Part shown: positions 4,350-34,751 of the stretch, piece by piece | Layout: each line of letters begins with the position of its first letter | Numbering within the stretch: the stretch's first letter is position 1 | Source of the DNA: a virus | Taxonomy: Duplodnaviria > Heunggongvirae > Uroviricota > Caudoviricetes | IMG/VR virus record: IMGVR_UViG_2778261527_000008 | Length of the DNA stretch: 35,461 nt | Strand: one strand, 5' to 3' | Position numbers and translations under genes: made by a program | The notes under the pieces: model-generated | The model's database searches: none | Told to the model about the DNA's origin: nothing | What the model saw: only the letters and a program-made list of their open reading frames with translations

Positions 4350-4532
4350 TTACCAGACCTCGGCGGTAATCTTTACTTTAATGTCATACTTCTTTAAGAG
4401 TTTGTGGAAGGTTGATTGATCAATACCTTCACCTTTAAACCATTCACCCATCACTACATCAGGTGTCAGTTCAAAATAACGCTTTGCCATTTCTAAAACG
4501 ATTTCACGAGTGAACTTAACAGGTCGTGCCAT
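4350..4532 (-). CDS. small hypothetical protein (60 aa), possible DNA-binding regulator
   Basis: ATG preceded by AGGAGG RBS; first gene leftward of the noncoding control region. Confidence 0.4.
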   Translation of the reverse strand: MARPVKFTREIVLEMAKRYFELTPDVVMGEWFKGEGIDQSTFHKLLKKYDIKVKITAEVW

Positions 4533-4874
4533 CTTATATCCTCCTAAATCTGGAATAATGATTTCTTAAAAAAGAGCTTTTCGCTCTGAACAATTCTATT
4601 TATAAAATGTTTTTCGAAAAACCCTGTAAAACCACTGTATATCCGATCAGTGGGAGCACGAATTGCTAAAGAGAAGATTAATAATTAATCAATTCGTACA
4701 TTATTCAATCGAATAAGCACTGTATGTTTAGCCAGTTCTGTATGAATTAACAGTGAGTCAGGGGATTTTCAGAAGTGAACAATCATTTCATGCATGTATT
4801 TATACACGAAAAAATCTTGCGTATCATCAATATGGGGATTGTTTCGAAAATTTCAACCCCTACCAACGAGAAAA

Positions 4875-4903
4875 AGCATAAAATAATCCTTGACAGTTGT
4901 CAA
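4875..4903 (-). promoter_or_regulatory. candidate sigma70 promoter reading leftward, embedded in palindrome TTGACA-gt-TGTCAA
   Basis: on minus strand -35 TTGACA (4903..4898), 17-nt spacer, -10 TATGCT (4880..4875); the palindrome could also be an operator. Confidence 0.3.
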
Positions 4904-5100
4904 TACACTTGATCTAAGCGAGAGATGACTATCAAAATTTTTGTGTGAAAATGGCGGATAACGATTATCAACCTTTATAACCTATTATAGCACGGCGACC
5001 TTTTGATAATTCTTTTTAAATCATGCATTTACGGCGATTTTTGGTGATTTTCTGGTTAAATAATATACAAGAATTTTCTATCAAAATTTTTGATGAAAAA

Positions 5101-5220
5101 CCTACACTACAAACCTACGCTTTAAAGGGATTGGCCTACACTACACTAGCCAGTAAACCTACACTATAACACCCTCAAACCTACACTATGAAACCTACAC
5201 ACCTACACTAACCCTACACT
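5101..5220. repeat. iteron-like direct repeat array, core CCTACACT (6 perfect + 2 variant copies)
   Basis: copies at 5101, 5114(var), 5135, 5158, 5180, 5194(var), 5202, 5213; three successive spacings of 21-23 bp; often preceded by AAA. Confidence 0.6.
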
Positions 5221-5408
5221 TCAATCTCATAAGTGTATGATATTGAAAGACATTTCACCCCACAGACCATAGAATATAAAATTCGAACTAACGTTCTCCT
5301 TTTTGCTCGTTTTCTCTCACTACGTTCAAGAAAGATCTCGCAAAAAGAATACGGCGTAGCCGTGCGCGAAGCGCCCATCAACACCTTCTAAGACCTGCAA
5401 GCAGGATT

Positions 5409-5561
5409 CGAAAGGGATTGGATAGTTCGCTTCGCTCACGTTCACGCCTACGGCGTTCACTCGCTTTTGAAAGGATTTTCTTAGAAAGGGATTTAATACT
5501 AGTTACTAACTGATTCTAGTAAACGAACGAAGTGAGTAACAATCACTTTCTAGAAAGGTAT
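5409..5561. repeat. second direct-repeat family GAAAGG(G)ATT (4 copies)
   Basis: copies at 5409, 5468, 5483, 5552 inside a GC-richer structured segment. Confidence 0.4.
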
Positions 5562-5799
5562 TGGTTATCCCTTCGGGATTGCAACCTTCGGTTGCTAAAT
5601 TGCTTCCTGATTATTATTTCTCCAAAAGAAAGATTCTTATATTCTAAAGATACTTCTTCGTTTTGATGATGATTTAATCAAACCATGAAGGAGGGCTTTA
5701 GCCCGACTGAATACAATCACCTTTCATAATAACAAGAATTTTCTCTTTATAAATAATAGTGAACTTACTTGATTCACTTTCTTTTAGAGGATTTCCACT

Positions 5800-6267
5800 A
5801 TGAACCATAAAATGACTACCACTACTCCTTTTATCCTTCTGGGTCTGGATTCTGATAGCTTCCACAATGACAAGTTAATGAAGATGTTCCGTGAACGTGG
5901 TTATAACATCCTTTTCAACTCTGATGAATCCCATTTCTCTAGTGCATGGTATGCGTTTTACCGTAATAAGAAGCCGACCATTGTAGTTAACTGCTTCACC
6001 GATGAAGAACGCTTAAAGTACCAGGATCTACCAGCAATTATTGTCCGTGATGATCTGCCGTTTCAAGTCCGTTCCGGTGACATTGATCTGGGTAGCTTCG
6101 TTACTGTCTATGAACTGGATGAAGCAATGTTTAACTACGGCAAAGAAACCGCTCAGGAAGCCCCAGAAGAAGATGAACAAGACGAAGATGACGACGACTA
6201 CGCACCAATCTGTTTTTCTTCTCAGAATGGCTTCTACGGTTACGACGAAGGCTTAGATATGCTGTAA
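5800..6267 (+). CDS. hypothetical protein with strongly acidic C-terminal tail (EEDEQDEDDDDY)
   Basis: 155-aa ORF, AGAGGA RBS, E. coli-like codon usage; first rightward gene after the control region. Confidence 0.5.
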   Translation: MNHKMTTTTPFILLGLDSDSFHNDKLMKMFRERGYNILFNSDESHFSSAWYAFYRNKKPTIVVNCFTDEERLKYQDLPAIIVRDDLPFQVRSGDIDLGSFVTVYELDEAMFNYGKETAQEAPEEDEQDEDDDDYAPICFSSQNGFYGYDEGLDML

Positions 6268-6302
6268 GTTAGGTCAACCCTTTGGCGTCTTGTCAAGGGG
6301 TA

Positions 6303-6331
6303 TTGACAAAAATTTCTGACTTTTTTATGAT
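6303..6331 (+). promoter_or_regulatory. candidate sigma70 promoter
   Basis: -35 TTGACA 6303-6308, 17-nt spacer, -10 TATGAT 6326-6331; upstream inverted TGTCAA at 6291-6296. Confidence 0.35.
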
Positions 6332-6389
6332 TGTCGCACTTGACAACTTTAAACCTATTTGACCTAGATTTGTAAATGGGGTGTTAATT

Positions 6390-6536
6390 ATGAACACTAC
6401 TAAGAAAATTGATGGACGTAAAACCCCGAACCGCAAACCGTGGACCCCAAACCTGAATTTCTCAATGGTTGACTTCCATGAACGCCAGCGTCGCATTCAA
6501 GAAGAAATTGATCGCGCGATTGCTGAATCTAAATGA
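6390..6536 (+). CDS. small basic protein (48 aa)
   Basis: ATG at 6390 with GGGG RBS; MNTTKKIDGRKTPNRKPWTPNLNF...; below ORF-track cutoff. Confidence 0.35.
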   Translation: MNTTKKIDGRKTPNRKPWTPNLNFSMVDFHERQRRIQEEIDRAIAESK

Positions 6537-6633
6537 GATAAAAACTTCTTATAAATAAAATTGTTCCGGTGATGCTGCCGGAACTAGGAGGATCAATATC
6601 ATTATCGCAAAACCGTTTAAGGGGAATTTAATT

Positions 6634-7440
6634 ATGAATACTGTTACTGCTATGAATACTACTAAAACCGCTTCCGTGTCTCTGGTTGTTGATAACACCA
6701 AACCGCTGACCATGTCTTCTCGTCAGATCGCTGAATTTACCGGAAAGAAACACTTTCACGTAAAACGCGACATTCGCGAAATGCTGATTACCTTAGAATT
6801 AGATGAATCCAAATTTGGATGCATCTTTTTTGATCAATATGGACGCGAGCAAACAGAATATCACTTGAATGAAGAACTGACTCTGACTCTTGTCACTGGT
6901 TACAATATCCAGATGCGAAACGCGGTTATTCAGGAATGGAAGCGACTGAAAGAAGAAAATGAAAAACTTCGCTCTACTCCGGTTAACCCGTATGCAGACT
7001 TTGAAGAAACCGACTGGATCGAACTGGCGTTAAAGAAAACTCGCGAGAACAAGCAACTGATTACTCTACATCATCGCAAATCCGTAGATAGCCATTCAAT
7101 GACGCGTTTGTTAGGTGCTAAAAAGGGCGCTACGAAGGTTAAAGAAGCACTGACGGCCTTACGTACTGCCGGATACATTGAGCGCGTCTATGATGAAAAT
7201 AACAAGCCGTGTGGGTATGTTGCTAATGATTCCGCGATACCGTTTTGCAGCATGAACGCTCACTATCAACTTTCTTTCACTGTTGATGTGCTTCCGGTGC
7301 TGGTTGAATTGGGTGTTCTTGAAGAAGAACAAAAAGCAGCTTTGACACTGCCTAAACCGAATAACACGATCATGATTCAGAATAAAGCGACTATCATGAT
7401 TCGTCAGAATGTTGGATCGCTAGAACACTTCGGACTGTAA
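6634..7440 (+). CDS. phage regulatory protein, Rha-family antirepressor-like
   Basis: 268 aa; N-terminal SSRQIAEFTGKKHFHVKRDIREML typical of Rha/ORF6N DNA-binding domain; AAGGGG RBS. Confidence 0.55.
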   Translation: MNTVTAMNTTKTASVSLVVDNTKPLTMSSRQIAEFTGKKHFHVKRDIREMLITLELDESKFGCIFFDQYGREQTEYHLNEELTLTLVTGYNIQMRNAVIQEWKRLKEENEKLRSTPVNPYADFEETDWIELALKKTRENKQLITLHHRKSVDSHSMTRLLGAKKGATKVKEALTALRTAGYIERVYDENNKPCGYVANDSAIPFCSMNAHYQLSFTVDVLPVLVELGVLEEEQKAALTLPKPNNTIMIQNKATIMIRQNVGSLEHFGL

Positions 7441-7448
7441 TAATTTTT

Positions 7449-7473
7449 GCCCCTGAATTTCAGGGGCTTTTTT
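7449..7473 (+). terminator. rho-independent terminator
   Basis: gcccctgaa-t-ttcaggggc perfect inverted repeat followed by tttttt. Confidence 0.6.
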
Positions 7474-7522
7474 GTATCTGTAGGTATAAAAAAAGCCAAC
7501 CCCGAAGGATTGGCCTAGAGAA

Positions 7523-7753
7523 TCAAATTCCTGTTGCTTCTACCATTTCACCATCAACCTGAACAAAGAATTTCAAATCAACTTTATGAAGGGATTTGTA
7601 TAGCTGGGCTATGGATAAGCCATGCTCATTTAATACCCGCTCTTTGTTCTCTTTACCTTTCGGTGCTTGATAGTACGCTTTTACAATCGCTGCCAGTTGT
7701 TCACGATTAAAACGGGCAGGGCGACCGCGAGTAGCTTTAGTAGTCATAGTCAT
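7523..7753 (-). CDS. small putative DNA-binding protein with AT-hook-like RGRP motif (76 aa from internal ATG)
   Basis: ORF track starts at a GTG; the ATG at 7753..7751 has a GGAG RBS; MTMTTKATRGRPARF... Confidence 0.4.
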   Translation of the reverse strand: MTMTTKATRGRPARFNREQLAAIVKAYYQAPKGKENKERVLNEHGLSIAQLYKSLHKVDLKFFVQVDGEMVEATGI

Positions 7754-7782
7754 TTTCTCCAAATTAAAGTGAATGTTCACCT

Positions 7783-8388
7783 TTATTTAGAGGACTTACA
7801 TTTTATCGGAAAAAGTTCTCCATCGTCAACCGACATAAAGAACTCTGCCTTAATCCCGTACTTCTTCAACCGTGAATAATATGTACCCCGACTAATATCA
7901 ACCTTGCGCAGCACTTCGAAGAACTCTTTAGGATTCCTGTAATAGTGGCTATATCGCACGTTAGCGAGTTCTACAAACAATTCCCTTGTATCACCATAGC
8001 CTTTCTTGAAAGCCACGTTACGATAGCGTGTAATGGCATGATTCAATCTCTTCTGTTTAAGCACTTCCCTGATCGGCTTCCACTGCAACCGATAGATAGG
8101 ACCGTCATCAATGCGATAATAACGCTTGATATCAAAATCAAACCAATCTCGGACTCTCCGAAACTCTGTATGTGATGTTCTATGCTTCTTAAAGAAGTTG
8201 TGAACGTCTCTATAGCCATTATCACGGTAAAATTCTATTAAAATCTCTTTCGCTTCCTCACGGCTAAACCCAGATGTTGTGTAATCGGTCTTTAAGTGCT
8301 TATGTTTTACTGGCAAACGATATTCATGATCGGTACAACAAGACAAGGCTAATTCTACTTCATCTCTTTGTTGCTGATTAATTAGCAT
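7783..8388 (-). CDS. hypothetical basic protein with C-terminal HTH-like segment
   Basis: 201-aa ORF; Arg/Lys/Tyr-rich; ISRGTYYSRLKKYGI resembles an HTH recognition helix. Confidence 0.45.
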   Translation of the reverse strand: MLINQQQRDEVELALSCCTDHEYRLPVKHKHLKTDYTTSGFSREEAKEILIEFYRDNGYRDVHNFFKKHRTSHTEFRRVRDWFDFDIKRYYRIDDGPIYRLQWKPIREVLKQKRLNHAITRYRNVAFKKGYGDTRELFVELANVRYSHYYRNPKEFFEVLRKVDISRGTYYSRLKKYGIKAEFFMSVDDGELFPIKCKSSK

Positions 8389-8474
8389 ACACCCTCCTTA
8401 AATCTTAATACCGTATTTATCAAAATATAAACAATTTAATAAATACCTTCATATTTCGTAATGAGGGTAATTAC

Positions 8475-10382
8475 ATGAAACTGATTTCTAATAAGGCAAA
8501 ATTAAAAAAGATTCTCAGAAATGCAGCCAAATATATTACGCCACCGCCTAAACTCCTTCCATCGGAATGGTGCGAAGCGAATCTAACGCTAGTCGATGGT
8601 CCTCGTGCTGGGGATAAAGTTAAATTGCTGTCATTTCAGAAAGGCATGATTGATGCTCCTTTCCTTGAGAAGAAAAAGAAGTACGTTTTTTGTACGAGTG
8701 CGCAGATCGGAAAGACGACCATCATGTCAGGGATCATGTTTAACCAGATGGCAAACGATCCGTGTAATATCATTATCGGGCAAAGTACCGCTAAAGAAGT
8801 GGCTATGTACTTGAATACTAAGATCCGTCCTTCTATTGAAGCATGTCCGGCATTACAGGAAGTGGTAACAGATAAGAATGATCGTAATGCGGTAAACAAC
8901 AATAACCAGATTCAGCTAAAAACAAACCATTTCCTTTACATGGTTTCTTTGACCAGTCCTTCAAGTTTGCGCGGGCGTACTGCCAAGTTAGGGATTGTAG
9001 ACGAATGCGACGCAGCAACAATCACCGAAGAAGGTTGCCCGGTGGCACTAACTGCAAACCGTTTAACTACCTTTGGTGATGAAGCTCGATTGATTGTTTC
9101 TAGTACCCCGACCAATAAGCTGGGAATCATTAACCAGCAATGGTTATCAAGTGATATGCGTATGTTTTTTGTTCCGTGTCCTCATTGCGGGGAACACCAG
9201 GTGATCGAGTGGGAAAACGTTCAATTTGAATGGCGTAACATTGATGGTAAGAACTTACCCGATCCTGATACCGCTCGTTATATTTGCCCCCACTGTAAGA
9301 ACGCATGGACAGAAGGGGAACGAATCAGGGCAGTAGCGCAAGGCGAGTGGAGAGCAACCCGTGAAAGTGAAGTAGCAGGATTCTGGATCAGTCGTCTGTA
9401 TTCACCTTTCAGCACGATCCGCGCTTGTGTGGTTGATTTTAGTCATGCGTGGCAATCCTTTGATTTACAATCCTTTTTTAACACCGTGTTAGGCAAGGTA
9501 TACGACGATCAGGACACGGCAGTAGAAGCAAATGAACTGGAACAACTCAAAACAGATGTTTCTATCGAGAATATCCCTGATGACGTGATTTTCTTGTGTG
9601 CGGGTACTGACCAGCAATTAGATCGCGCAGAAACTACGATCATGGGCGTGGCAAAGGATAAGATTTATATTCTGGATCACCGCAGCTTTTACGATCATAA
9701 CTGTGAACGATATGAATCACCTGTATGGGATAGATTAATCAACTTCCATAAAACCAAATTTACTACTGTATCGGGTGATCGTGTTCCTATGCTCGCCAGC
9801 TTCCTTGATACATCGAACGGTCGATTCACTCAAGCTGGATACCGTATTTGCGGCAAGTGGAAGAACTTACACGCTATCAAAGGTAGTTCTGCTGGTAACG
9901 CTCCGATCATTCCGGTTAAACCTACCCGCACAGGTGGTCATGAATTGCTTATGCTGGGCGTTAACGTTGGGAAATCCGCTGTTCGTGAAATGCTGGTTAG
10001 AAACCTGAAAGATAATCCTCATATTGGCTTAGAAATATCAGAAACCATTCCTGATGATTATCTCGATCAGCTTTTGAGTGAATCCATCAAGCGTACTACT
10101 ACTGGCGTGCGTTGGGTGAAAAATCCAGGTAGTACCCGAAACGAGGCTCTCGACTGTCTGGTTTATAGCTATGCTGCTTCTCGCTACGTTCTTTCAAAAA
10201 TGTCATGGGATAAACTCATTGCAATGAAAGACAGCTTAAACCGTGTTGTCGAAGAATCCGTAGAAGCTCCTAAATCGCAATCTGACGAGCAAATCGAAGA
10301 AAATAAGCCAATCACACGACCACAACGTAAAAACATCGCCAGACGCCCAAATAGAGGCCGTAGCTGGGTAACATCGTTCTAA
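8475..10382 (+). CDS. terminase large subunit, lambda GpA family
   Basis: 635 aa, size and motifs (zinc-finger-like CPHCG...CPHC segment) consistent with GpA-type terminases; GAGGG RBS. Confidence 0.8.
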
Positions 10383-12516: not shown

Positions 12517-14523
12517 ATGCTTAAATTTCGCCGCGATCTTAACGGTTACGGTGGAGTTATTAATGAAGGGCATAACGATCAATACGAATTTGAAATTGCT
12601 TTCTCAAGTACACAGCCTTATCAGCGCCAATTTTGGGATGAGCAAAATCAAGAAATGGTGGTATTAGATGAAATTCTGGTACATACACCGGAAGCGGTTG
12701 ATCTGTCTCGTCTGAATAATAACGCTCCGTTGCTGTTCAATCACAATTTCGATAATCACATTGGTGTAGTTTGTAACGCTCGAATCGATGCGGATAACGT
12801 AGGTCGTGCTCTGGTTAAGTTCTCCAAGCATGGGACTTTGGCTAATGATATTCGTAATAAAGTCATTGAAGGTACGATGGAAAAAATTTCTGTCGGCTAT
12901 GACATTAAAGAATATCACATCGATTATGCCAAAGGACAATTGATTGTTACTAAGTGGGCACCCTATGAACTCTCATTTGTCACCGTTCCCGCAGACGATA
13001 CGGTCGGTTTAAATCGCTCTCTAAATACTATCACAGTTAATTTGGAGGCTAAACGCGATATGACTAAAGAACAAATTGAAGAAATCAAAGAAGAACAAGA
13101 ATCCGCTCAGGTTGAAGAAACTCCGGTAGAAGAAAATAAAGAATCGGAAGTAGAAGAAACTCAAGAGCGCCAAGTTGAAGAGAATAAAGAAGATGAAAAT
13201 CTCGAAGACGGAAAAGACGCTGAACATCCTGAAAGTGTTGATGATGATAGTTCAACTGTTCGGGAAACAGAAGAAGTAAAAGAAGAACGTGAAGCCGCTC
13301 CGGTTGAAGAAGAAAAAATCGAAGAAGTGGCTGAACGTTCCGAAGAAGACGAATTAGAAATTCGCGAAATTGCACGCGAACTAAATATTGATGACGAAGA
13401 ATTGAAACGCGCATTGGCAATTAAAGATATGACGCCGGAAGCATTCCGCACTAAGGCACTAAATAACATTACCAATGCTCAACGTATTAACGAACAACAA
13501 ATTAAGGACTCTAAAATGGAAAAAACTTTTGACCTGAACAACGTAATTCGCTCTCTGGTAGATGGTGAAGCTCTGGGTGCTAACGAAGCCGAGTTTTCTG
13601 CAATGGCTGCTACTACAACTATGCAGCGTGGTCGTGCCGCTCGTGGTGGCTCTGTATTCGTTCCGGCTGCTGCTATGCGTGCTGCTGCTGATGGCAACAC
13701 CAAAGCTAATCTGGTTGCTATCACTGACGAAAAACTGATGACTGAATCCTACATCGAAATGCTGATGCCTCAGAGTGTTTTAGGCCGCCTCGGGGTGACT
13801 GTTTATAGTGGCTTGACTTCTCCGACCGCTATTCCAAAAATGACTAAATCCAGCGTTGACGCTTTCGGATTCGTTGACGAAAATGGCGCTGCCCCCGAGT
13901 CACATGCGGAATTTTCGAACGTGAAACTGTCTCCGAAAACTTTTGCTGGTGGCAACCCGATCAGCCGTCAGTCGCTGAAAACCGTTCCGGGCATCGCTAC
14001 CCTGATCACCGATCACATTAACAAATCTGTTCGGATCAAACTGGAACAACTGATTCTGTCTGATAAAGAAAATGCTCGTGGTCCGGCTGGTCTGGTTAAG
14101 CAACTGGTAGACGCTAGCCGCGTTACCAAGAAAGCTGCTTTCTCTTATAAAGACTTCCTGAAAGAAATTGCAGCACTGACTGACGCTGGCGTTCCTGCTC
14201 AGGCGATCAAGTTTGCGATGAGCGGTGCAACTGCTGCTGAACTGGAATCTACCCTGAAAGATAACGGCGTTTCCGGTTATATCATCGAAAACGGCAAACT
14301 GGCTGGTTACGAAGTAGTTACTTCTGGCGTTATTCCGGCAGACCACATCGTTCTGGGTGACTTCTCCGGTATTACTATCGGTGAGTGGGGCGGTCTGGAA
14401 CTGGATATGGATCTAACTACATACCGTGATCGTGGTGCGGTAGTGCCTCGTATCTTTGTAGATTTGGACTACGTTGTAGCACAGCCGGAAGCTCTGAAAG
14501 TTCTTCACATCTCCGCTGAATGA
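12517..14523 (+). CDS. prohead protease (HK97 gp4/S78-like) - acidic scaffold-like linker - major capsid protein (HK97 fold) fusion
   Basis: N-terminal ~170 aa with protease-like SVGY/ELSFVTVPA motifs; ~110-aa Glu-rich linker; C-terminal ~340 aa capsid-like; single uninterrupted ORF. Confidence 0.7.
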   Translation: MLKFRRDLNGYGGVINEGHNDQYEFEIAFSSTQPYQRQFWDEQNQEMVVLDEILVHTPEAVDLSRLNNNAPLLFNHNFDNHIGVVCNARIDADNVGRALVKFSKHGTLANDIRNKVIEGTMEKISVGYDIKEYHIDYAKGQLIVTKWAPYELSFVTVPADDTVGLNRSLNTITVNLEAKRDMTKEQIEEIKEEQESAQVEETPVEENKESEVEETQERQVEENKEDENLEDGKDAEHPESVDDDSSTVRETEEVKEEREAAPVEEEKIEEVAERSEEDELEIREIARELNIDDEELKRALAIKDMTPEAFRTKALNNITNAQRINEQQIKDSKMEKTFDLNNVIRSLVDGEALGANEAEFSAMAATTTMQRGRAARGGSVFVPAAAMRAAADGNTKANLVAITDEKLMTESYIEMLMPQSVLGRLGVTVYSGLTSPTAIPKMTKSSVDAFGFVDENGAAPESHAEFSNVKLSPKTFAGGNPISRQSLKTVPGIATLITDHINKSVRIKLEQLILSDKENARGPAGLVKQLVDASRVTKKAAFSYKDFLKEIAALTDAGVPAQAIKFAMSGATAAELESTLKDNGVSGYIIENGKLAGYEVVTSGVIPADHIVLGDFSGITIGEWGGLELDMDLTTYRDRGAVVPRIFVDLDYVVAQPEALKVLHISAE

Positions 14524-14649
14524 ACTCCTGTAGAACCATCTGAACCTTCCCCCGATTTGGGGGAAGAAAATCTGATTCCTGAACCGGAAGAAGAATCCCA
14601 GACGGTTAAGGCGAAAGCCACAGCTAAAAAACAGCGTAAAACTAAAGAA
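14524..14649 (+). other. in-frame post-UGA extension of the capsid ORF (42 codons), candidate readthrough isoform
   Basis: no stop in frame from 14524 to TAA TAA at 14650-14655; no start codon or RBS; encodes TPVEPSEPSPDLGEENLIPEPEEESQTVKAKATAKKQRKTKE. Confidence 0.4.
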
Positions 14650-14657
14650 TAATAATT

Positions 14658-14684
14658 AGCCCTGCCTAACGGTGGGGCTTTTTT
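14658..14684 (+). terminator. rho-independent terminator after capsid gene
   Basis: agccctgcc-taac-ggtggggct followed by tttttt. Confidence 0.6.
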
Positions 14685-14714
14685 GTATGTAAATACTCCA
14701 TAAAGGGGGTAACT

Positions 14715-15005
14715 ATGTTCAAATTATCAGAATCACAATTAAATCGAATGTTTAAAAGTGCTCCTGTATTTTCGGTGGAAGGTGGTAAATCAATTCGTGC
14801 TTATCATGAAATTACTACTACCGACGAATCGGGGGTAATGACAGAAACAGAATTTCTATTCTGTCGTGAGGGAGACTTAAAGCAAGGTGATATTGTCACA
14901 GTAGAAAACCAGCGTTTCAAAGTTCAATACGTTAAGCGCAATGGTGACAATACTTGTGATTGCTTTATCACTTTAGCAGGGGGTACACATGCTCGCTACC
15001 GTTAA
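14715..15005 (+). CDS. head-tail adaptor / head completion protein (candidate)
   Basis: 96-aa ORF directly after capsid gene, AGGGGG RBS; synteny only. Confidence 0.4.
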   Translation: MFKLSESQLNRMFKSAPVFSVEGGKSIRAYHEITTTDESGVMTETEFLFCREGDLKQGDIVTVENQRFKVQYVKRNGDNTCDCFITLAGGTHARYR

Positions 15006-15411
15006 TAATATGCCGAGACTGAAAATCAAACGCGCCTTGCAAGATATTATCGAACAAGATTTAGGTCTGGCTTTAAACGTAGAACAAACTCAGCAAGGCT
15101 TTAGTGATGACGTGGTTTGTTGGATTACTGGCATGAATGAGACTTACACAAGGGTCCGTGGCGGTAATGCAATGCAAGCTGAATGCGTTATCGAAATGCA
15201 GTTATATTCTCAGATTCATGAAACGAAAATTCATGAGGGTATTTGCCAGATAATCCAGATTCAGCCAGATAACCCACGATTTAAAGATTTGGGCTTCTCT
15301 ATTTCAGATATCACTCCAGTAGCTTCTAATACCGATTATGACGATGATTCTAGTGATGGGGGTATCGTTGGGACACTTAGCCTTAAATTTTCTTATCTAG
15401 CGCGTTTTTAA
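14989..15411 (+). CDS. head-tail joining or tail completion protein (candidate)
   Basis: 140-aa ORF overlapping previous stop by 17 nt; synteny only. Confidence 0.35.
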   Translation: MLATVNNMPRLKIKRALQDIIEQDLGLALNVEQTQQGFSDDVVCWITGMNETYTRVRGGNAMQAECVIEMQLYSQIHETKIHEGICQIIQIQPDNPRFKDLGFSISDITPVASNTDYDDDSSDGGIVGTLSLKFSYLARF

Positions 15412-34023: not shown

Positions 34024-34443
34024 TTAAAGAATTTCACGGCAGCTAATCAGGGAATAAGACGTATCACCTTTTTTAACATCAAATATAGGTGCGCCATCTA
34101 CAGAATGCAGATATTTGATGTAGGATTTACCATCTTCGGAACCATAATATTCTTCTTTCTCGTTCTTATCTTCTTTCAGTTTTGGGCTTTTGATTGTTTT
34201 ATCAAATACCGGATCGTTGAAAGCAAATTGACTATTATCATCATTCACTCGAACCTTTACACCGATAAAACCACGGTATTTGCCAGACGGCGCATGATAA
34301 TAACGGTCGCCATCACTCAGGTAGCGTGTATCATCTCCTTTATATTCGAAGTAGGAATTGCACACATAATAGGTATAGGTATTAGCATTCGCAGCACCAA
34401 CCAAACCCAGAGCAAGAACAACACCAGCGATAATCTTTTTCAT
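34024..34443 (-). CDS. secreted/periplasmic hypothetical protein
   Basis: 139 aa; signal peptide MKKIIAGVVLALGLVGAANA; two Cys. Confidence 0.4.
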   Translation of the reverse strand: MKKIIAGVVLALGLVGAANANTYTYYVCNSYFEYKGDDTRYLSDGDRYYHAPSGKYRGFIGVKVRVNDDNSQFAFNDPVFDKTIKSPKLKEDKNEKEEYYGSEDGKSYIKYLHSVDGAPIFDVKKGDTSYSLISCREIL

Positions 34444-34488
34444 AGTAGAATTTCCTCTTGTTGTTTGAATTACGATATATTTATATCA

Positions 34489-34611
34489 TTAAAAGTTAAT
34501 GCTAATAATCAGACCAAACACAACCGCACCAATCAAATCAATCCAGTTAATACACAGCGAATATTCTTTCTTGAATGTCTTAGATGAAATGCCATCATGA
34601 AATTGTTTCAT
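34489..34611 (-). CDS. small hydrophobic peptide (40 aa), type I toxin-like or membrane modulator candidate
   Basis: ATG at 34611..34609 with GGGGTGAG RBS; MKQFHDGISSKTFKKEYSLCINWIDLIGAVVFGLIISINF. Confidence 0.2.
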   Translation of the reverse strand: MKQFHDGISSKTFKKEYSLCINWIDLIGAVVFGLIISINF

Positions 34612-34751
34612 TGCTCACCCCATACTAACGACAATATAAGAAAGACTAATCATGGTTGTGAGACTACCTCCCACGAATGAGATAAAAGCTAACATGTTTG
34701 ATTCTCCATTTAAAAAGCGGTGGGAATTACACCCACCAAATTAGAAATTAA

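Follow-up and report, generated by a model that had tools for sequence, protein, structure and literature searches.

Does a tailed phage lengthen some copies of its major capsid protein by reading through the stop codon of the capsid gene? The question is raised by a 35,461-nt stretch of DNA, the IMG/VR virus record IMGVR_UViG_2778261527_000008 (the window, meaning here the whole stretch that was analyzed), an Escherichia coli prophage in which the open reading frame (ORF) for a protease-scaffold-major capsid protein ends in TGA followed by A. The same frame then stays open for 42 codons, up to a double stop, TAA TAA. An earlier note on this DNA had described this layout, which was confirmed from the sequence; it had also argued that the extension is not an independent gene, with which the lack of a conserved start codon or ribosome-binding site (RBS) agrees, and had proposed a candidate programmed readthrough. 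Comparative data on the frame and the stop favor that proposal, whereas peptide-level selection is weak. The best reading of the locus, to which a probability of roughly 0.6 is assigned, is that UGA readthrough by tRNA-Trp is selected and would add a disordered tail to the C-terminus of a minor form of the capsid protein.

The stop codon and the frame behind it in related loci

By themselves, 42 open codons are weak evidence, the chance of such a run being (61/64)^42 = 0.13. The stop and the frame were compared in 63 related loci, comprising the window, 32 IMG/VR contigs, 11 metagenome contigs, 14 stretches of complete E. coli genomes, and five more loci (four IMG/VR contigs of a second capsid lineage and one contig with a capsid gene broken upstream). 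TGA followed by A was present in all 63, with adjoining codons that vary (GAA, GAG, GAC, or GAT before it, ACT or AAT after it); the constant GAN (Glu or Asp) last codon may be part of the termination context. The open frame-0 extension and its double stop were likewise present in 63 of 63 loci, in 30-odd distinct extension sequences, and no frame-breaking indel or in-frame stop was found in the extension in any of them. When 23 distinct extensions were tested frame by frame, frame 0 was open in all 23 and frames +1 and +2 were closed in all 23; every variant added afterward was also open in frame 0. The double stop was TAATAA in 56 of 58 loci and TGATAA in two, and the five further loci had TAATAA (L124 and L033) or TGATAA (L125-L127).

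Insertions and deletions followed the same pattern. Extension lengths among the loci were 81, 84, 99, 126, 129, 132, and 135 nt, and at least six indel events were counted within the extension, all multiples of 3 (27- and 48-nt deletions or replacements and several single-codon indels). The adjacent 59-nt spacer held at least five indels, all of 1-2 nt and none of 3, located in the terminator loop (+1, +2, -1), an A-run (+1), and a G-run (+1), so that multiples of 3 made up 6/6 events in the extension versus 0/5 in the spacer (Fisher exact p = 0.002). The E. coli matches whose BLAST lengths differed by non-multiples of 3 were specifically inspected, and the 1-2 nt indel always lay in the spacer. 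From these comparisons, it is well supported that selection keeps frame 0 open behind the invariant UGA-A.

The same arrangement was found behind a second capsid gene. In seven loci (L110-L112 and L124-L127, from E. coli PE15, 39EVA, and RMDEC332 and four IMG/VR contigs), the capsid protein is only ∼37% identical to that of the window and ends in ...TVVQKKVD or ...KKGE; nucleotide homology to the window begins within 7 nt of the stop, which is again TGA-A, and the frame is kept. The extension in this lineage has 42, 44, or 33 codons, and a new tail, ..AKRGRKPKE, ends in TGA TAA. Because the same TGA-A, GAN codon, and frame recur in both capsid lineages, the stop and the extension appear to act as a unit that is kept in register with whichever capsid gene precedes it.

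The predicted extension has two parts, an acidic linker and a basic tail (Table 1). Across all variants the net charge of the linker ranges from -3 to -9, and in some relatives the linker is shorter through in-frame deletions of 27 or 48 nt; the tail carries a net +4 to +6 in every variant. The window's own tail ends in ..KKQRKTKE, and alternative ends among relatives are ..ERKTKAK, ..VGRPPKAK, and ..KRGRKPKE.

One contig (L033/L182, IMGVR_UViG_2877285697_000006) has an interrupted capsid gene, frame 0 stopping after 393 codons, and is intact in its 3′ part, at the TGA-A, and in an extension of 28 codons; it may represent a decaying prophage or a sequencing error. Separately, the segment 14656-14730, from the terminator and spacer to the RBS and opening codons of the next gene, was near-invariant across the family, in a neighborhood where capsid synonymous sites have a nucleotide diversity (pi) of 0.22. 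Head modules may have a recombination linker in this conserved segment, which could alternatively serve an RNA-level function.

Table 1. Features of the capsid gene, the candidate readthrough extension, and the adjoining region in the window.
Feature	Position	Strand	Remarks
Protease-scaffold-major capsid ORF	12517..14520, stop 14521-14523	+	668 codons (aa); gene with the candidate readthrough stop
Last sense codon, GAA (Glu)	14518..14520	+	GAA/GAG/GAC/GAT in all loci, both capsid lineages
Candidate leaky stop UGA with +4 base A	14521..14524	+	TGA-A in 63/63 related loci
Whole extension, 42 open frame-0 codons	14524-14649	+	TPVEPSEPSPDLGEENLIPEPEEESQTVKAKATAKKQRKTKE; read from the sequence
Acidic Pro/Glu/Ser-rich linker, first 26 codons	14524..14601	+	TPVEPSEPSPDLGEENLIPEPEEESQ; net charge -9; from the sequence
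Hairpin, 8 bp	14546..14566	+	CUUCCCCC-GAUUU-GGGGGAAG; starts 22 nt after UGA; dG -15.9 kcal/mol, z -3.6
Lys/Arg/Ala-rich tail, last 16 codons	14602..14649	+	TVKAKATAKKQRKTKE; net charge +6; from the sequence
Tandem stop TAA TAA ending the extension	14650..14655	+	Double stop in all 63 loci
Untranslated spacer, 59 nt	14656-14714	+	Between the double stop and the next gene
Intrinsic terminator, 9-bp stem (6 G-C pairs; 14658-14679) and T-run	14658..14689	+	2 nt past the double stop
Next gene, 96 aa	14715..15005	+	Weak Phage_attach match; marks the end of the spacer

Coding signature, RNA structure, and competing explanations

Codon usage in frame 0 of the window's extension was gene-like, scoring +18.4 log2-odds compared with 14.9 ± 7.3 for real in-frame gene pieces of this phage; off-frame pieces scored -33 ± 10.6, and none of 2000 attained +18.4. 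In a codon alignment of 32 distinct variants, the single-base events in frame 0 comprised 19 synonymous and 25 nonsynonymous changes, and the same substitutions read in the other two frames gave synonymous to nonsynonymous counts of 10:36 and 10:30. The 19 synonymous events stood against a null mean of 12.5 (P = 0.022), a mild enrichment; an earlier count on 23 variants had given P = 0.06. Tails of the GRPPK type differed almost solely at third positions (GGA/GGT, CGT/CGC, CCA/CCG, and AAG/AAA).

The RNA downstream of the stop is predicted to fold in both long and short variants. In every long variant the stem of the hairpin at 14546..14566 was invariant while its flanks varied, the sole change being U to C in the loop in L111, L125, and L126. 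Short variants have an unrelated 11-bp hairpin with a GNRA loop, beginning 10 nt after the UGA (dG -14.9, z -6.5), in which 43 of 44 cells pair across four distinct sequences; these include one compensatory change from U-A to C-G, at the cost of a Leu-to-Ser replacement, and three one-sided compatible changes. The presence of a post-stop hairpin in both non-homologous versions is suggestive of a readthrough stimulator or of an mRNA stability element.

Several observations weigh against a selected readthrough product. Selection on the peptide is weak: the event-based dN/dS is roughly 0.5, and diversity in the extension has no third-position periodicity (0.108/0.153/0.144 by codon position, compared with 0.061/0.067/0.224 in the last 100 capsid codons). 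One minus-strand frame is open too, in 21 of 23 variants. The +1 frame is as basic (+4 to +9) as the frame-0 tail (+4 to +6), and the basic charge of the tail is therefore partly a by-product of A/purine-rich DNA. The junction is unusually conserved: the spacer (14656-14714) is almost invariant, with pi 0.007, and the hairpin stem of the long variants is invariant, and for these reasons the conservation of the ORF is in part a matter of low divergence in this region or of constraint on the RNA. The hairpins, 10 or 22 nt past the UGA, lie further away than classical recoding stimulators, and the covariation in the short variants, drawn from four sequences only, is not significant. Natural E. 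coli isolates with fully active release factor 2 (RF2) may read through UGA less than K-12 does. A megablast search of the capsid region against 50,697 phage records found no match, and no isolated phage of this family is present in INPHARED; among 5.8 billion protein clusters, no protein matched the 42-aa extension. The last result means that, in the sampled data, the extension has never been called as a gene and the UGA has never been exchanged for a sense codon.

Set against these points, the expectations raised in the earlier note fared unevenly. The post-stop frame was indeed kept in relatives, free of frame-breaking indels and in-frame stops across the 63 loci and with an invariant UGA-A. 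A synonymous bias was found in the substitution events (19:25, P = 0.022) but it is weak and absent from the diversity by codon position. The acidic linker and Lys/Arg-rich tail recurred in every variant, but the basic charge is partly compositional. Conserved basic charge had been considered as protein-level evidence and was dropped, the +1 frame being equally basic.

These same data bear on the possibility that the extension is an untranslated relic, a former C-terminus of the capsid protein cut off by a nonsense mutation and lying in a 3′ untranslated region that RNA elements or a low-divergence recombination hot spot have preserved. The fused Ala/Lys tails of sister capsids (described below), the highly conserved junction, the weak dN/dS evidence, and the open minus-strand frame would all be compatible with such an origin. 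A relic would, however, have had to pass through ∼50 substitution events and at least six indels since the common TGA with every indel a multiple of 3, next to a spacer with indels of only 1-2 nt, and to have acquired a frame-0 stop in no variant. Its codon usage is still gene-like, and the TGA has never drifted to the preferred TAA in 63 loci and two capsid lineages. A relic, one of the two main rival readings, is accordingly considered improbable.

Alternatively, the ORF may be kept open for an effect in cis, the peptide itself being irrelevant, if ribosomes that leak past the UGA must reach the TAA TAA by the terminator. Such ribosomes might modulate terminator folding or Rho access, might shield the abundant capsid mRNA at its 3′ end, or might simply be given a short, harmless "landing strip" for leak that is unavoidable. 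The strong conservation of frame and openness combined with weak conservation of amino acid sequence favors this explanation; the double stop lies 2 nt from the terminator stem in all loci, and the basic charge owes something to base composition. However, a leak of a few percent would alter termination only marginally, and a landing strip would be reached more simply by a TAA stop, as in nearly all other genes of the phage. Additionally, the non-homologous tails (QRKTKE, ERKTKAK, VGRPPKAK, and RGRKPKE) all keep the acidic-then-basic design, and sister clades place similar tails directly on the protein. An effect in cis, the other main rival, is thus judged unlikely. A strictly maintained frame around a loosely constrained peptide is what would be expected if linker and tail are disordered, or if the ORF is kept open for something other than the peptide it encodes.

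The predicted readthrough product

Under selected readthrough, most ribosomes would terminate at the UGA with RF2 and release the normal protease-scaffold-capsid precursor, while a small fraction, a few percent, would decode the UGA with near-cognate Trp-tRNA-Trp and continue for 42 codons to the TAA TAA, where the tandem stop would halt them just ahead of the transcription terminator. Reporters of UGA readthrough in E. coli K-12 gave ∼2% at 37°C and ∼4% at 25°C, a level that depends on how the Trp-tRNA-Trp ternary complex competes with RF2 and that cyclic AMP (cAMP) modulates (PMC10570021). The product would be a minor capsid subunit with a flexible acidic, Pro/Glu-rich linker and a Lys/Arg/Ala-rich C-terminal tail, and insertion of Trp at the UGA would give the tryptic peptide VLHISAE-W-TPVEPSEPSPDLGEENLIPEPEEESQTVK.

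Two other translational routes were weighed. In the first, the extension would be an independent small protein, whose translation begins either at a non-AUG codon within it, TTG 14557, or by reinitiation once ribosomes have terminated at the capsid stop; the program-made ORF list does contain a 31-codon TTG ORF at 14557-14652. That TTG is the sole in-frame start-like codon, however, has no Shine-Dalgarno sequence upstream, and lies inside the hairpin; it is TCG in L111, L125, and L126, the matching Leu codon in the short variants is TTA, CTG, or TCG, and the conservation of the frame reaches right back to the UGA, all of which make a separate small protein very unlikely. In the second, the UGA would be decoded specifically, either as selenocysteine through a selenocysteine insertion sequence (SECIS) or as sense through a phage suppressor tRNA or an alternative code. 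Although a hairpin does follow the UGA, Rfam at E <= 10 over 14300-14800 returned only noise and no SECIS, and the hairpins of the two extension types are unrelated and lie at different distances from the stop (10 and 22 nt). No suppressor tRNA was found in the window by ARAGORN, and all other long ORFs are intact under standard code 11, with 3 of 33 ending in TGA, leaving specific decoding with scarcely any probability. Judged from the sequence, routes other than readthrough thus appear excluded, since neither a conserved start or RBS nor a suppressor tRNA, a SECIS, or a change of code was found.

The single ARAGORN call in the window was a 91-nt tRNA-Glu (anticodon TTC) at 15176-15266 on the minus strand, within the opposite-strand ORF 14989-15411. 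Its excessive length and its position in a conserved protein-coding gene make a false positive probable.

The protein to which the extension would be added is a protease fused to a capsid domain. Residues 40-162 match the Peptidase_S78 prohead serine protease domain (Pfam E 2e-10) and residues 410-664 the HK97-type Phage_capsid domain (Pfam E 1e-25), joined by an acidic scaffold-like region, and the whole corresponds to the major head protein family PHROG_617 (E 6e-93). The capsid domain aligns with the major capsid protein of roseophage R4C (PDB 8gta_A; E 9e-26), and since this alignment ends 7 residues before the stop, the extension begins where the capsid fold ends. The C-terminus of HK97-fold capsid proteins is exposed outside the shell in T7 and P22. 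It is exposed outside in encapsulins as well, whose shell protein has the same fold (PMC8229669). By analogy with these outward C-termini, the extension tail would probably be displayed outside the head. R4C, the nearest solved capsid, has T=7 symmetry with 415 subunits and no decoration protein (PMC10276861); readthrough of 1-4% applied to 415 subunits would place ∼4-17 extended subunits on each head. The tail could conceivably bind polyanions (DNA, lipopolysaccharide, capsule, or mucus) or an acidic patch of the shell itself.

Prophage setting, distribution, and sister capsids

The window is an E. coli prophage of siphovirus type; it encodes a terminase and portal of the lambda type along with tail fibers and a tape measure protein, and over the region compared it is 100% identical to E. 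coli H2 (NZ_CP028733). Its 33 long ORFs end in TAA (29), TGA (3), or TAG (1), the capsid gene being among the three with TGA, and in 7 of the 33 a second in-frame stop directly follows the first. The most highly expressed gene of the prophage, that of the capsid, has a TGA stop against an extremely TAA-biased rest; in E. coli, UGA leaks more than the other stop codons, and highly expressed genes avoid it (PMC4989110). TGA-A also ends another ORF, 34105-34587 (160 aa, no PHROG match), beyond which the frame stays open for 30 codons (34588-34677; NAIMKLFHCSPHTNDNIRK...). These codons are not tail-like, and the ORF may itself not be a gene.

The module of stop and extension was present in 54 of 5426 complete E. 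coli genomes (∼1%), in all cases on the chromosome. GTDB representative genomes, scanned once by protein-alignment pattern and once for the unchanging 28-mer of the spacer, gave no match, nor did tblastn of the 42-aa extension against phage records. In every E. coli genome record whose annotation was read, PGAP placed no annotation between the capsid stop and the next gene. Annotation pipelines never call the extension, and similar cases elsewhere have probably been missed.

Sister capsids, which are ∼40% identical, end in TAA (TGA in L137) and fall into three states: a fused tail, a tail in the -1 frame, or neither tail nor terminator. Fused in-frame Ala/Lys tails form the protein's own C-terminus in L069, L071, L072, L073, L076, and L135, with ends such as ..GTPAEAKAAKQ, ..PAEAPAEAKAGK, ..PAEVKAALKASA, and ..GEAEAGETRKAK, and in these the terminator lies 13-25 nt past the stop. 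One fused sister tail, ..GCTAAAGCTGCTAAGCAA, resembles the window's GCGAAAGCCACAGCTAAAAAACAG at the DNA level.

Tails in the -1 frame, 17-38 aa long and with a Lys/Arg-rich end, extend to the terminator in L130 (about 2515-2620), L078, L074, L070, L137, and L035 (3400-3530). They are always preceded, 1-3 codons before the stop, by an in-phase Lys-codon slip motif, namely GAA_AAA_AAG in L130 (a dnaX-type heptamer), GAA_AAA_AAA in L078, A_AAA in L070 and L074, and A_AAG in DCP80 and L137. The tails of L070 and L130 are homologous across an in-frame codon indel and have in common a hairpin just after the stop, with one compensatory pair. Programmed -1 frameshifting on these sister genes is a candidate, to be treated as a lead and not as a result because there is partial overlap between the slip motifs and a conserved Glu-Lys dipeptide. 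The fused and -1 frame tails of the sister clades make it likely that this capsid family has a genuine, recurring short basic tail at the C-terminus, whose dosage would be set differently by lineage.

One of the -1 frame loci, L035, is PQ671644.1 (Escherichia phage DCP80), a 141-kb genome deposited under Straboviridae (Tevenvirinae). At 4358-9286, close to its left end, it has a portal gene and then a protease-capsid fusion module related to the window's prophage family, all annotated as "hypothetical protein"; the module may be a chimeric assembly or an unusual insertion.

A broader interpretation is offered tentatively. The UGA-A, hairpin, acidic linker and basic tail, double stop, and terminator might together constitute a portable recoding cassette that sets the number of subunits bearing an exposed polyanion-binding tail, present on at least two capsid genes that are 37% identical, with sister clades using -1 frameshifting or fusion instead. 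If readthrough is confirmed, this would be the first programmed stop-codon readthrough in a structural gene of a tailed dsDNA phage, the recoding repertoire of tailed phages would be wider than frameshifting, and a new, minimalist type of capsid appendage would be added. Readthrough, frameshifting, and constitutive fusion would then be interchangeable solutions within a single capsid family, and the contrast with the sister clades would provide a handle on how recoding mechanisms replace one another. The locus would also offer a natural, tunable E. coli system for UGA leak, which varies with temperature, cAMP, and RF2.

The stop context of the Qbeta coat gene is likewise UGA-A. In Qbeta, the coat UGA is read as Trp by host tRNA at ∼5%, giving the A1 protein and a few extended coat subunits per particle (PMC7026636; PMC8067240). 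The window resembles this system in its candidate leaky UGA on a coat gene, in the Pro-rich start of the extension (a polyproline II helix in A1), and in its host, E. coli. Qbeta is, however, a T=3 single-stranded RNA levivirus with an unrelated coat fold and a folded extension of 196 residues that is essential for infectivity, whereas the window encodes an HK97-fold dsDNA phage capsid with an extension of 27-45 residues across the variants that is probably disordered. Functional readthrough is very rare in bacteria and their DNA phages, a review of recoding having only Qbeta among phages and Bacillus subtilis SacB among bacteria (PMC7026636), and a literature search across 8 million papers found no tailed-phage capsid made by stop-codon readthrough.

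Among tailed phages, T7 (gp10B), T3, Lactobacillus phage A2, and Listeria phages A118, A500, and PSA make minor C-terminally extended capsid proteins by frameshifting, and in T7 a distant element in the terminator affects the recoding (PMC5009743). As in the T7 10A/10B type, a single capsid gene in the window would give a longer minor product differing by a C-terminal extension, the products here being predicted from sequence. The T7-type proteins arise by a -1 or +1 shift at slippery sites, and several add Ig-like domains; because the window's extension is in frame 0 and no slippery heptamer was found before the capsid stop (14510-14523), the window does not belong to the frameshift group. 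The -1 tails of the sister clades (L130, L078, L070, L074, L137, and DCP80) share with the window a homologous capsid and a Lys/Arg-rich tail between stop and terminator; they differ in frame, in their TAA stop (TGA in L137), and in the Lys-codon motifs before the stop, and are candidates too.

Further afield, coat readthrough in plant luteoviruses and others likewise produces a minor displayed coat species, often with a Pro-rich linker (PMC7026636), but involves eukaryotic ribosomes and eRF1, large functional domains, and long-range RNA stimulators. The Lys/Ala/Pro-rich DNA-binding tails of AT-hook and histone H1-like proteins are resembled, by sequence, by the variants ..KKVGRPPKAK and ..KRGRKPKE, the first of these at a sub-threshold level: the VGRPPKAK variant scored 13.4 bits with Pfam AT_hook (PF02178), under the cut-off of 17.4, and the window's own tail, ..KKQRKTKE, had no match to that model and lacks a GRP core. 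In view of T7 10B and its counterparts in T3, A2, and A118/A500/PSA (PMC5009743), the earlier note overstated its case in calling a sub-stoichiometric capsid extension a novel type of decoration for dsDNA tailed phages. What is already known is the recoded capsid extension, as in Qbeta A1 and T7 10B; what would be new is its production by stop-codon readthrough in a tailed phage.

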